Positions 25,047 to 59,191 of a stretch of 64,000 nt of DNA are shown one piece after another. The DNA comes from an uncultured Candidatus Saccharibacteria bacterium (GTDB taxonomy: Bacteria; Patescibacteriota; Saccharimonadia; Saccharimonadales; Saccharimonadaceae). The stretch lies in NCBI GenBank assembly GCA_964407015.1, contig CAYOTX010000001.1, forward strand, positions 1,708 through 65,707, read 5' to 3'. Made by a program: the position numbers and the translations under genes. Every line of letters starts with the position of its first letter. The stretch's first letter is position 1. The notes below the pieces were generated by a model. It did not search any database. It had not been told where the DNA came from and saw only the letters and a program-made list of their open reading frames with translations.

Positions 25047-25095
25047 ATTTTTATTTTAACATGTAGCGTGCTATAATCGTAACATTAACAATTTA

Positions 25096-25184
25096 ATATC
25101 AAGAAGGGGCGAGGGAACGGCCTGGTGACCCCCTACCAACCTAGCTAGACCAAGGTGGTAAATCCGACCAGAAAGGAAAGATAT
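25096..25184 (+). promoter_or_regulatory. SAM riboswitch (SAM-I superfamily)
   Basis: ATATCAAGA..GAGGGAACGGCC..TGA.CCCC..CAACC...AAGGTGGTAAATCC...GATAT directly upstream of metK. Confidence 0.9.
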
Positions 25185-26145
25185 GTTCTATAGAACTGCG
25201 GAGAGCGTTTCTCCGAAACACCCAGATAAATTATGTGACCAAATAAGTGATGCGATACTGGATGCGTATTTTGAAAAAGATCCAAATGCGCGCGTAGCGG
25301 CAGAGGCTTGTGGCGGGCACGGCGTAGTGTTTGTAACTGGTGAGATTACATCTGAGGCGGATGTGGATATTCCGGCCATAGTGAAACGAATTGCCGGAGA
25401 TGGCATAGAGGTGCATACCAAAATTGTGAAGCAGTCGCCAGAAATTGCGCAAGGCGTAGATACTGGTGGGGCGGGCGATCAGGGCATAATGATAGGCTAT
25501 GCGTGTGATGAAACGCCGGAAATGTTGCCGCGCGAAGTAGTGCTGGCACGTCGGCTAAACCAGTATATATATGAAAAGTACCCATTTGATGGCAAAACGC
25601 AGATTACAATAGCGCCAGATGTAAGTATTGATTCTATTGTGGCGAGTTTTCAAAATGCACCACGTGAAGAATTAGAGAAATTAGTGCGAGAATTTATAGA
25701 AAAGGAAAAGTTGACTGGGAAGTTAGAACTGCATATTAATCCGGCTGGGGATTGGCAACAAGGTGGCTTTGATGCGGATACGGGTCTGACCGGGCGGAAA
25801 CTAATAGTAGATAACTATGGGCCACGGGTGGCGATAGGTGGAGGATGCTATTCTGGTAAAGATCCATCTAAGGTGGATAGGAGTGCAGCGTATATGGCAC
25901 GGCGAATTGCGGTGAATTATTTAAGAAAACGCAAGGCGCATGAAGTGTTGGTGCGGCTAGCATATGCGATTGGCTATGCTGAACCTTTGGAAAAAACGGT
26001 AATCGTAGATGGTAAAGCTGAGGAAATAGAAGGATACGATCTTACGCCAAATGGAATTATAAAATATTTGGATTTGAAGCGACCAATTTACGAAAAAACT
26101 GCGCGGTGGGGGCATTATGGCGAAGGGTTCGACTGGGATAAATAG
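25183..26145 (+). CDS. metK: S-adenosylmethionine synthetase (compact form)
   Basis: AESVSPKHPDKLCDQISD, GAGDQG, DTGLTGRK, GKDPSKVDRSAAY. Confidence 0.97.
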   Translation: MFYRTAESVSPKHPDKLCDQISDAILDAYFEKDPNARVAAEACGGHGVVFVTGEITSEADVDIPAIVKRIAGDGIEVHTKIVKQSPEIAQGVDTGGAGDQGIMIGYACDETPEMLPREVVLARRLNQYIYEKYPFDGKTQITIAPDVSIDSIVASFQNAPREELEKLVREFIEKEKLTGKLELHINPAGDWQQGGFDADTGLTGRKLIVDNYGPRVAIGGGCYSGKDPSKVDRSAAYMARRIAVNYLRKRKAHEVLVRLAYAIGYAEPLEKTVIVDGKAEEIEGYDLTPNGIIKYLDLKRPIYEKTARWGHYGEGFDWDK

Positions 26146-27633: not shown

Positions 27634-27828
27634 AGATTTAACGGAGAGACAATATTCTTAATAGCCTAATACCGGCCATGAGCAGGAGATATACTAGTTC
27701 AGAGGCCTTCCGTTTACAGGGGTAGTAATTGACATTTTTAGGAAAGTGTGCTATAATTATGTTAGCGGTAGGTATTTTGATGACCGTGAATCATTTACAT
27801 AGTCTGATTTAAAAAGGAGGGGGTCTTT

Positions 27829-37764: not shown

Positions 37765-39741
37765 TTAGCCACTTCTCATACATCGCACAGAGAGCCCGTA
37801 GAACTTCTTACTGTCGATGCAACTGTTGCCGGTGCCCCAGAAAGTCAGGTACCACGCATGGTTATTGGCGTACCGGGTGCTAGACCACCAGTACCCACCA
37901 CTCCCGACATTACGTTGAGAACCGGAGTAGAAGTTGCCAACAGTGTTCAAAGAACCATTATTAACTAGCGCCGTTCTAAACGTACTGTTTTTAATTTCTA
38001 AATCGCCTGAACCATACGTCAGCAATGCCCACCCAGCCGGACAAATAGAACCTAGCGCATAGCCATCGTTCGTCAATGTAGCGTCAGTATCTGACGTCGG
38101 ATCTGAGCACTGGTACGGATTCGCTATGGCTGCATACCAGTTATAGAAATACTCACCATTTTGATTACCTACAGTCATTATAGCTTTACAATAATAATCC
38201 TGGTCGGCAGAAGCCCAAGCTTCCGTAGGCAAAGTAAATGAAGTTTTTGTAACGCTTTTATTAGTATTTGGGTCTATATAAGTTACACCACCAGCCTTGA
38301 TGTCTGAATCGCCAGTCTTCAAAGTCATTCCACTTGCTACGGCTAAGTTGCTTAATATAAAGCAGAAACTGCTGTTACCACTAGTAATATAATTTACACC
38401 GTAGGCCTTACCGTCTCTAGCATCGTACTTTGTGCCAGCACAGCTTGCACTAGTGTTGGTAGTGGCTTGCAATGTATTAGCATTAAAGTTCCAAATGGCA
38501 TAGTATGTTATATCGTCTGTAGGAGTTATTCCTGTTGTTACAGCTGCGCCGGTGCCATCCGCCTTTACATTCCATTCTTTAAAACTAGTATAGCAATCTG
38601 CTCCGTTACACTGAGTATTTGGTTTAGTTATTGTAGGTAAAGTAGTCACTGTCCCATATGTTACGGTACTATCTGGCAAGTTAGTTCCAGAATAATTACT
38701 ATCCCAAGTTACCATATATGGGCGCCACATAGCGTAGAGTGTAATATTTGTATTACTAGTAGTTTGGTTTAATGTATATGCTAGATTACTTCCATCACCA
38801 TTTGGGTTGTAAGTAGTACCACTACAACTATCTATATTGTCAGTTTCTACTGGTTGCATACTACACCAACCTAGGAACTTACGACCAGTCCTAGTTGGCA
38901 CTGTGTTTGGTAATGTTACTATAGTATCATTTGTGCTACTGCCTAAGTCGTCTGGTAGGTTACTTACCGTCCCTTCTTCTGCATTACCTTTATTGAAGGT
39001 TATTTCATACGGTATAGGATTAGCCACAGCAGTAATTACAAAAGTATTAGTATATGAACCTTTAGGGATATCTGTACCTACTCTAGCGCCTATAGCCATA
39101 TTGTAGTTGTTAGCGGTTTCTGGGTTAGCTGTATCTGTAGCATCTAAAGTGATGGGTGTGGTAGTGGTAGGAGCTGGTAAGTAGTTAGTACTTTCTGATG
39201 TGCTTAGTTTGGTAAGTGTATAGCCCCAAGTATTGTTATACTGAATATTACTGTTACCCGAGAAGGCTTGCTCTGTAATACCGGCACTAGTTACCCCCTC
39301 TACCGTACCAATAGAAGAAATCCTGCCTATAATAGTCTGTTCATTGCCTTCTCCTGATGTTTGCACTAGATTAGCTGCATCTGCTTCATCACTACTAGCT
39401 GCTATACCTAGTGTATAGCCAGCAAAGTAGTTAGTAGTAGCACTTATGGTACTACTAGCAGTATCAGACTTAGCAAAAGTACCTGTGGTAGAGATTGGTT
39501 TTAAGTCTAAAGAAATACTATTAGCTATAGCGACATTGAGAAATGGGTCTGTAGCAAAGGTAGGATTACCAAATATAAATAAGCTAGACATTAGGCTGAC
39601 GGTAACCAACAATAGAATAGATGGGCAAAATAAGCGAGGTCGTAGTGCCAACGGAAGAAGTGAAAAGCCGTTGGCACTAAAACACCGCTTATTATTATCT
39701 TTATTTGCACCTATACTGTTATTTTGTGAAATATATTTCAC
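37765..39741 (-). CDS. Secreted FISUMP-type protein B with InlB-B/Flg_new-like repeats
   Basis: Signal, WxL-like domain, two F.GW/F.EW...LYA.W repeats, ICPAGW, WWSST...SVRC. Confidence 0.8.
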   Translation of the reverse strand: MKYISQNNSIGANKDNNKRCFSANGFSLLPLALRPRLFCPSILLLVTVSLMSSLFIFGNPTFATDPFLNVAIANSISLDLKPISTTGTFAKSDTASSTISATTNYFAGYTLGIAASSDEADAANLVQTSGEGNEQTIIGRISSIGTVEGVTSAGITEQAFSGNSNIQYNNTWGYTLTKLSTSESTNYLPAPTTTTPITLDATDTANPETANNYNMAIGARVGTDIPKGSYTNTFVITAVANPIPYEITFNKGNAEEGTVSNLPDDLGSSTNDTIVTLPNTVPTRTGRKFLGWCSMQPVETDNIDSCSGTTYNPNGDGSNLAYTLNQTTSNTNITLYAMWRPYMVTWDSNYSGTNLPDSTVTYGTVTTLPTITKPNTQCNGADCYTSFKEWNVKADGTGAAVTTGITPTDDITYYAIWNFNANTLQATTNTSASCAGTKYDARDGKAYGVNYITSGNSSFCFILSNLAVASGMTLKTGDSDIKAGGVTYIDPNTNKSVTKTSFTLPTEAWASADQDYYCKAIMTVGNQNGEYFYNWYAAIANPYQCSDPTSDTDATLTNDGYALGSICPAGWALLTYGSGDLEIKNSTFRTALVNNGSLNTVGNFYSGSQRNVGSGGYWWSSTRYANNHAWYLTFWGTGNSCIDSKKFYGLSVRCMRSG

Positions 39742-39761
39742 TGCTCACCTTTCTGTTTTAC

Positions 39762-39919
39762 TTCGCAGTGCCTACCTCCTATAAAAATGGCACCGCAAGG
39801 GGTGCTAATTCTCATCAACCTAATCAAGTTTATCAGGCAGTGATACCTTACGGCGCCATTTAACTGTCTGATAAACCTACATTATAAAAATAACTTGATT
39901 TATTAATGAGAATTAGCAT
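39762..39919 (-). ncRNA. Structured 5' leader RNA, copy 2
   Basis: P1 TGCTAATTCTCAT/ATGAGAATTAGCA after TACAAT; invariant 23-mer at 39783-39805. Confidence 0.7.
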
Positions 39920-40073
39920 TTTAATTGTACCGTGCTTTTGAAATATACACAAGGCTTTTTGCCGAAACTCAACGATTTTTCATTGACTTTTTGGCTGAAG
40001 TGTGGTATAATTAGGGTATAGGGCTAGTGACAAGGGCTCTATCTTTTTTTAGTTTTTATGTTATAATAGGGTT

Positions 40074-58551: not shown

Positions 58552-59191
58552 ATCTTTATTATACAACGTTTGAGATCGTTCAACTAGAAACTACGGCGGG
58601 TTTGTTTTTGTATGATTTTTATTTATTGCACAATATATCCACCACAATTTGGTTGGTTTGCGCGAAGCAAGCCATAGATTGTGGCCGTTGAGAGACTTAT
58701 TGTGTTTCGATCTCACGATCATATAGAGTTTTATTGGGAGGTGTGTTTAAGAAAAGAGCGCACGATTTTGGTTTCGCATCTCGCTAATATTAATGCGCGC
58801 CAGAGCTCCTAGATGATCGATCTCAAACTTTTTTAATGTACGACTTTTGTTTAGCGTTTTTGTTTAATTATTCGCTGATTTAAGTTTATGATAATTTTCA
58901 ACAAAATGCAAGAGCTTTTTTGGACTTTTTTATTTTGGGAGTTTTTCACAAATGTGGAAAACTCCCCTGTTAATTTCCCGAACAAAGCTGGTTGAAATTC
59001 TGTGGTTTTGTGGTGTGATAACCGAACAGTTCCCTGTTCTATGGCTTGGCTTTCTCTGTTATATTCTGTTATGCTTGACTTTTTAGCTTAAGTGTGATAT
59101 AATTATGTTATGGTGGGGGTTTTGTGGCCCTAATCGCTTCTAGCGATTATTTTTTATATGGTATAATGTAGGAAATAAGTGGAGATAATAC

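Follow-up and report, generated by a model that had tools for sequence, protein, structure and literature searches.

In riboswitches of the ZTP, preQ1-II/III and SAM-II classes, the expression platform makes use of the same 3′ tail that base-pairs with a hairpin loop. The stabiliser leaders of ompA and aprE consist of one hairpin each and lack an invariant tail, a pseudoknot and any alternative partner. The Mycoplasma vsp, vlp and vsa families vary by promoter slippage or by site-specific DNA inversion, the latter at conserved 5′ regions. Saccharibacteria spend their lives attached to host bacteria, with surface proteins as the interface; to our knowledge, very little is known about gene regulation in their reduced genomes. 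Here we analyse a structured leader, copy 2, which occupies positions 39918–39762 on the minus strand of a 64,000-nucleotide stretch of Saccharibacteria DNA (the window) and lies upstream of the gene B open reading frame (ORF; 37765–39741). We refer to the genome of copy 2 as G000. After re-reading the parts of the leader and verifying their coordinates on the minus strand, we arrived at the following features, in which L, T and A denote the tail-complementary loop segment, the tail core and the anti-tail.

39929–39924, minus strand: −10-like box, TACAAT, assigned by homology, 5 nt upstream of P1
39918–39902, minus strand: P1 5′ strand, UGCUAAUUCUCAUUAAU (MFE structure)
39900–39893, minus strand: P2 5′ strand, AAUCAAGU, which pairs with ACUUGAUU (MFE structure)
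39892–39877, minus strand: conserved U-rich 5′ bulge of 16 nt, UAUUUUUAUAAUGUAG, between P2 and P3
39876–39863, minus strand: P3 5′ strand, GUUUAUCAGACAGU, which pairs with ACUGCCUGAUAAAC (MFE structure)
39862–39842, minus strand: apical loop, UAAAUGGCGCCGUAAGGUAUC, which contains segment L
39861–39846, minus strand: segment L, AAAUGGCGCCGUAAGG, complementary to the tail
39841–39828, minus strand: P3 3′ strand, ACUGCCUGAUAAAC (MFE structure)
39829–39822, minus strand: P2 3′ strand, ACUUGAUU, with a 2-nt overlap with the P3 3′ strand as first annotated
39819–39803, minus strand: P1 3′ strand, GUUGAUGAGAAUUAGCA (MFE structure)
39800–39789, minus strand: tail core T, CCUUGCGGUGCC; the full tail reads CC-CCUUGCGGUGCC-A-UUUUU
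39798–39789, minus strand: tail segment in the tail/anti-tail helix, UUGCGGUGCC, partner of GGCACUGCGA
39787–39783, minus strand: U5 run, 1 nt past the tail core
39780–39775, minus strand: AGGAGG, inside the loop of the tail/anti-tail hairpin, AUUUUUAUAGGAGGUA
39772–39763, minus strand: anti-tail A, GGCACUGCGA, 10 bp with the tail, two of them G-U
39751–39744, minus strand: Shine-Dalgarno sequence (SD) of gene B, AAGGUGAG, 2 nt upstream of the GUG at 39741
39741–39739, minus strand: GUG start codon, within a small hairpin at 39741–39726 (GUGAAA-UAUA-UUUCAC)
37765–39741, minus strand: gene B, 658 aa, surface-type, with a weak FISUMP match at the C terminus and Flg_new repeats

Every leader that we parsed starts 3–6 nt past a TAnAAT-like box, and the P1 5′ strand of copy 2 is probably the 5′ end of the mRNA. 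Copies 1 and 3 carry a TG extension of the −10 box that copy 2 does not have, and a promoter scan called no full −35/−10 promoter at copy 2. Elsewhere in the window, a strong promoter block, TTGACTTTTTGGCTGAAGTGTGGTATAAT (−35, 17-nt spacer and extended −10), heads unrelated genes; its copies lie on the plus strand at 1706–1743, 27729–27764, 39983–40020 and 59075–59112, and the one at 39983 drives a der-like GTPase gene that is divergent from copy 2.

The copy 2 leader folds at −62.8 kcal/mol (z = −5.1), a value reached by none of 200 shuffles, and its MFE structure holds the helices that a first-pass annotation of the window had named, including the tail/anti-tail hairpin around AGGAGG. The stems had been said to differ in sequence from those of copy 1 and yet to pair, which we confirm: copies 1, 2 and 3 all form the same three-helix rod. 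The annotated P2 and P3 pairings are also sound, but P1 (39918–39902 with 39819–39803) had gone unnamed and the 3′ strands given for P2 and P3 share 2 nt. P3 of copy 2 contains one A/C mismatch, and the U-rich bulge is unpaired or weakly self-paired. The rod (P1–P2–P3) comprises about 45 bp, and its sequence varies between copies while the pairing is kept. Thus, P1 strands pair with their own partners at a mean of −14.0 kcal/mol, compared with −3.3 kcal/mol for cross pairs, and their own partner is the best one in 58 of 64 leaders; for P2/P3, the corresponding values are −20.9 and −8.0 kcal/mol, and 57 of 64 leaders. For P1 of copy 2 itself, its own strands reach −14.3 kcal/mol against −8.1 kcal/mol for the best cross pair. 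In 62 of 64 leaders, the rod folds better as the sense than as the antisense strand (−52.3 versus −41.1 kcal/mol; p = 6e-12), with 4.9 versus 1.8 G-U pairs per rod. This asymmetry argues for an RNA element rather than a DNA element. Unpaired elements are conserved as well: an alignment of 56 leaders shows this for the apical loop, for the A-rich J1/2 and for the U-rich bulge, whose AUUUU block hardly varies.

Copy 2 belongs to a large family. The 21-mer of the tail has 32 matches in the 827,888 bp of G000, against none for a reversed-pattern control, and leaders head around 4% of all genes in this genome. A covariance model, R1, built from a leader alignment that includes copy 2, scores copy 2 at 95.0 bits (E = 4.3e-14; C1:41488–41626 of G000), a match that is partly by construction; copy 2 has the rod, the tail-complementary loop, the tail core and the U-run in the family order. 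Of 40 species sampled from the genus, R1 detects the leader in 20, at 1–32 copies each, and it finds none in 150 other genomes of the order (around 120 genera; stricter filters). The public records in which the tail occurs are MAGs of gut Saccharibacteria from mice and ruminants, and several bear the name Candidatus Nanosyncoccus. A search of the whole window against Rfam 15 at gathering score returned only two tRNAs and a SAM riboswitch, and with E values up to 10, copies 1 and 2 gave only chance-level matches to eukaryotic snoRNAs and miRNAs. In the literature on regulatory or noncoding RNA of Saccharibacteria and Nanosyncoccus, we found no description of the leader. We conclude that the leader is an undescribed, genus-restricted family of structured mRNA leaders, of which copy 2 is a full member. 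The SAM riboswitch of the window is of type SAM-I, lies on the plus strand at 25093–25187 (55.6 bits, above the gathering score) and is directly upstream of the ORF at 25183–26145.

Where the contig continues, the G000 copies precede proteins of 490–690 aa with an N-terminal membrane anchor, most of which share a motif (...YTDFFYYAFRNILL...) and a terminal FISUMP domain. Gene B and two paralogs, on contigs C4 and C27, form a subfamily (B-type) with a different N terminus. A search of JGI metagenomes and of 39 genomes from the genus turned up no orthologs of the B-type leaders; other contigs that encode the exact protein B (DNA assemblies) have an identical leader. In some species, the leader stands before genes for TM2-domain or unannotated membrane proteins, so that the genes served encode FISUMP, TM2 and unannotated membrane or surface proteins and offer no clue to a pathway. 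We rejected a tie between the leader and one protein family, given species with numerous paralogs but no leader (in G011, 19 paralogs and 0 leaders) and others whose leaders serve different gene families. Because the leader is not bound to a single family, its presence ahead of a gene with a different N terminus, as in copy 2, is consistent with this distribution.

Contigs often end in or next to a leader (in G000 at C3:127, C4:90, C22:29, C36:32, C12:39 and C41:31, and also in genomes G013 and G015). Short-read assemblies break at the leader repeat and its gene family, so copy numbers from MAGs are lower bounds. In 10 of the 32 G000 leaders (for example, L006 at C3:24571–27591, L004 at C2:4426–7446 and L011 at C8:28492–31512), a palindromic insert of around 150 nt separates the anti-tail from the SD. 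Two types of insert occur, one rich in AT (GCATAATTCATTATG...TAATGAATTATGC) and one rich in GC (AGCGGGTCCTG...CCACCCGCT); they look like miniature inverted-repeat elements that landed in leaders. A stand-alone hairpin that resembles tail plus anti-tail, CCTTGCGGTGTC-N13-GGCACCGTAA, occurs on the plus strand at C20:6181–6218 of G000; it is intergenic, lies just past a terminator and has no upstream rod.

The first-pass annotation of copy 2 did not name the main competitor for the tail, which is the apical loop of P3, with which the tail forms a pseudoknot (L:T). In copy 2, the L:T duplex has 16 bp and −28.0 kcal/mol. Loop–tail pairing of 12–16 bp is present in every leader examined (64 computed and around 40 more seen), and the computed duplexes range from −21.6 to −34 kcal/mol (64 of 64 leaders). 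Covariation was assessed in 56 leaders of four species, aligned with MAFFT. Pairing at the 12 core pairs is 86–100%, and at least 93% for 11 of them; changes on both sides occur at five pairs and in 50 cells, a result that none of 500 shuffles matched. Examples are G-C, A-U and U-A at tail position 6 and A-U and G-C at position 4. In the true register, 88% of cells are paired, compared with 41–56% in registers slid by 1–3 columns, and the RNAalifold consensus includes the L:T helix unaided. A run of four to six U residues begins 1–2 nt past the tail core in all 104 leaders inspected across 15 genomes. The loop–tail helix and U5, together with the rod, make up the universal core of the leader family.

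The second partner of the tail lies downstream. As annotated, GGCACUGCGA at 39772–39763 pairs with UUGCGGUGCC and encloses AGGAGG; this pairing (T:A) is better than 98.5–99% of dinucleotide shuffles (p = 0.01–0.015). All 26 G000 leaders that have enough downstream sequence for a register test place a GGCAYC (GGCACC-like) core opposite the tail GGUGCC in one ungapped register, with the core positions 92–100% paired. The anti-tail of copies 1 and 3, ACACAAAAUGGC(A/G)(U/C)CAC, covers the same GGUGCC and, written as AAAAUGGC[AU/GC]CAC, extends over the U-run; that of copy 2 extends over the 5′ half of the tail. The partner of copies 1 and 3, which had been described as different, is therefore not so: it has the GGCAC core and the register of copy 2, and the extension alone differs. 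By the same token, the earlier idea that an alternative tail pairing is retained with unrelated sequence is right about the retention and wrong about the sequence, as the GGCAC core and the register are common to the copies.

Covariation is also seen in T:A, with two positions that change on both sides (A-U/G-C at tail position 4 and U-A/C-G at position 13), and downstream regions prefer the tail variant of their own species in 72 of 97 leaders (p = 2e-6). The annotation had proposed looking for an anti-tail in all homologs and held that its common absence would count against a switch. In a survey of 97 leaders from 15 genomes, at p ≤ 0.05 relative to shuffles, the anti-tail was significant in 49, so such absence is in part what we found. 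The split follows lineage: the anti-tail is significant in 13–24 of 26 G000 leaders, depending on whether the U-run is included (24 of 26 at best), and is both highly significant and full-length in 11 of 11 leaders of G015 and 10 of 10 of G175, whereas it is mostly not significant in G023 (1–4 of 17) and G010 (0–1 of 4). It is short in G021 (GGCCYCACG), and in the clade of G186, G179 and G187, the partner is shifted to the end of P1 and the first tail bases, where it covaries (UAACACCC/GGGUGUUA, GAACACCC/GGGUGUUC and GACACCUC/GAGGUGUC). Being weak or absent in G023 and G010, the anti-tail is not part of the universal core of the leader and is lineage-dependent. In the B-type subfamily, the 5′ half of the tail has three different partner sequences: copy 2 pairs with it through UGCGAAG, which is contiguous because of an 11-nt deletion, and the two paralogs through GUGAGGGG past a 5-nt bulge and GUAGGG past a 7-nt bulge. 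Copy 2 thus illustrates that the anti-tail can evolve: among subfamilies and species it shifts in register and extent, while the loop–tail helix and U5 are fixed.

In G015 (L078–L088), the anti-tail GGCACCACGAGGGG is a perfect complement of the G023-type tail, CCUCGUGGUGCC, and has one A/C mismatch with its own tail, CCUCGCGGUGCC. This type of mismatch is found again in 31 of 60 leaders and may be a deliberately weakened position.

L:T and T:A use the same T bases, so the two pairings are mutually exclusive and define two states. A crude pseudoknot-aware energy sum gives median differences between these states of +2.2 kcal/mol in G000 and +0.5 kcal/mol in G023; for copy 2, the same sum favours the pseudoknot by 7.2 kcal/mol. 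Because the two helices are exclusive, both under selection and roughly isoenergetic, our leading interpretation is a two-state device, in which copy 2 would be a cis-regulatory leader that is off when L:T forms and on when T:A forms, with the choice made during transcription; we assign this model a probability of roughly 0.45. The sequences show the rod, the two pairings, their exclusivity and the invariance of U5; regulation of the switch, the assignment of on and off to the states, and the output are parts of the model that we infer. The conformational switch proposed in the annotation accordingly survives in outline, through the conserved alternative partner of the tail, and fails in the details of unrelated sequence and universality.

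In the two-state model, capture of the emerging T by L would create a GC-rich helix followed by U5, a terminator-like arrangement in a genome with no Rho, and this would be the off state. In a full-length RNA, L:T would instead form the pseudoknot and leave A free, which would also be off, so that repression might operate through premature termination at U5, the release of A, or both. Should L miss T, A would be made 20–45 nt later, pair with T and lock the leader in an open, translatable form (on). Copy 2 would differ from copies 1 and 3 solely in the flank of T that the anti-tail extension covers. Flanked by an A-tract and by U5, the GC-rich helix bears the signature of an intrinsic terminator at the level of sequence, with L:T being long-range; we know of no precedent for a terminator formed by a long-range pseudoknot helix. 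The distal U-run pairs with the A-run of the loop in only 64–66% of cells. A scan flagged a local terminator-like site at 39805–39790 (GCACCCCUUGCGGUGC and CAUUUUUAUA; a 5-bp hairpin plus U5), and this hairpin has −6.7 kcal/mol and competes with P1. No Rho RNA-binding domain was found in G000, which is 98.8% complete, and we rejected Rho-dependent attenuation because no encoded Rho was found. The termination version of the model does not account for the benefit of A. The rod is around 120 Å long with L at its far tip, so bending of the rod is assumed for L to reach T at the base; a fold-back geometry would couple the lengths of P1 and of P2+P3, and their correlation (r = −0.35, with a rough parse of the P1/P2 boundary) gave it no support.

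When T is withheld, the predicted accessibility of the ribosome site falls to 0.46 from 0.62, and 39 of 51 leaders show such a decrease; relative to shuffled spacers the effect is 0.57 versus 0.62 (p = 0.046; p = 0.14 for copy 2). The SD of copy 2 has an unpaired probability of 0.81 in the hairpin state and 0.77 with L and T withheld, and its GUG is paired in both states, either in the local hairpin or through the freed anti-tail CACUGC with GCAGUG. We did not take masking of the ribosome site by the anti-tail beyond a possibility, because the trend is barely above that of shuffled spacers and is absent in copy 2, and we rejected a role of the tail as a direct anti-SD because tail/ribosome-site pairing is at chance (5 of 85). 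Nor does copy 2 resemble an RNA thermometer: its SD is 0.81 unpaired, the GUG alone is in a 6-bp hairpin and the conserved structure is far upstream. The SD of gene B, whose GGUGAG core stands 5 nt before the G of the start codon, is conserved in both B-type paralogs. Both paralogs also keep GUGAA/UUCAC around the start codon, with the 3′ arm in a different codon phase, which suggests selection as a hairpin rather than as a peptide.

The same features could belong to a constitutive structural leader, in which the 5′ rod guards against 5′-end-dependent decay or is a signal for RNase III, and L:T and T:A are steps of folding. P1 begins at the predicted 5′ end of the mRNA, the rod is free in sequence provided that its pairing holds, and RNase III is encoded in G000 at C5:12326–12715, so processing of the rod is possible; moreover, the gene context gives no clue to a ligand and the predicted effects on the ribosome site are small. 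A stabiliser, however, needs neither an invariant tail, a covarying loop–tail helix of 12–16 bp and a U-rich bulge nor an invariant U5, and two near-isoenergetic, exclusive helices are typical of switches. We regard a purely structural role as unlikely.

Somewhat less likely again is that T, whose complement L and A mimic, is a shared address read in trans, be it by a small RNA, by other leader mRNAs through their loops or by a family-wide RNA-binding protein, with intramolecular pairing as secondary. The tail core is identical in all 32 G000 copies, whose rods are free to differ; T differs among species, L varies within G000 only in wobble-compatible ways, and intermolecular L:T pairing needs no bending of the rod. 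Against this, minority tail variants in G023 occur with matching loops in the same molecule, as for pairing in cis, and no candidate factor or small RNA was found, the single stand-alone tail-like hairpin being that on C20. We also consider it doubtful that T is a common address through which at least 32 leader mRNAs pair with each other (loop to tail) or with one shared factor. If it were, the leaders could constitute a joint dosage sensor or a means of mutually exclusive expression of an adhesin-like family. This would parallel, at the level of RNA and in an episymbiotic CPR bacterium, the control of antigenic variation.

The enclosed AGGAGG, for which use by ribosomes had been raised at the outset, could be a working site (for a uORF or for standby) that gives B-type genes their own translational control, and an SD-like motif (AGGAGGU, AGGAGGU and AAGGAGA) does occur in the three B-type leaders and in no other subfamily. 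The 13 nt after AGGAGG in copy 2, UAGGCACUGCGAA, however, contain no AUG, GUG or UUG, so there is no start codon 4–13 nt downstream, and gene B has its own SD at 39751–39744. The motif is also mostly paired, with an unpaired probability of 0.28, because of G-U wobble with the U-run. As candidate uORFs, we considered CUG...UGA in copy 2 and AUG-UGA in one paralog and discarded them, as these mini-frames are not conserved among the three paralogs. We see no sign that translation starts at AGGAGG; a standby or decoy role is conceivable, and a working ribosome site there seems improbable. Least plausible, and by a wide measure improbable, is a DNA-level element (a recombination or mobile repeat, such as a MITE or an inversion site, beside variable surface genes), to which the many copies, the contig breaks, the invariant 21-mer core and a likeness to the conserved 5′ regions of Mycoplasma surface genes might point, but against which count the strand asymmetry, the G-U pairs, the compensated copy-specific stems and the fixed place after a −10 box on the gene strand.

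Under the two-state reading, the leader is unusual in being confined to one genus, in serving several unrelated surface-protein families and in its pseudoknot/hairpin build, and it would be among the first families of cis-regulatory RNA that are restricted to the candidate phyla radiation. Its segments L, T and A, together with the U5 run, offer a concrete way to ask which signal controls the adhesin repertoire.

Among known systems, the leader resembles trp-type attenuators and riboswitch platforms in that T has exclusive upstream (L) and downstream (A) partners; as in trp-type attenuators, a U-run follows the upstream helix and the choice could be made during RNA synthesis. It differs from these attenuators in that its upstream helix is no local hairpin but a long-range pseudoknot with the tip of the 45-bp rod, that no U-run follows the downstream helix and that it lacks a leader peptide: the one SD-like motif of the leader has no start codon after it, and the rod begins at the 5′ end. 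With the pseudoknot riboswitches (ZTP, preQ1-II/III and SAM-II), it shares a switchable loop-to-3′-tail pairing and A/U-rich tracts that flank the helix, and, as expected of metabolite riboswitches, it has conserved, aptamer-like unpaired positions upstream of genes as well as covarying helices. Unlike in those classes, the helix is far longer (12–16 bp), and the leader has no Rfam match and serves surface proteins rather than a metabolic pathway, with 32 copies in one genome. Like the ompA and aprE stabilisers, it places a helix at or beside the 5′ end of the mRNA, to which it adds an invariant tail, a pseudoknot and an alternative partner. Finally, as in the Mycoplasma vsp, vlp and vsa families, a very small genome has numerous divergent paralogs of surface proteins that share an upstream module; unlike in those families, a separate −10 box precedes each copy of the leader, and what is conserved are covarying RNA helices.
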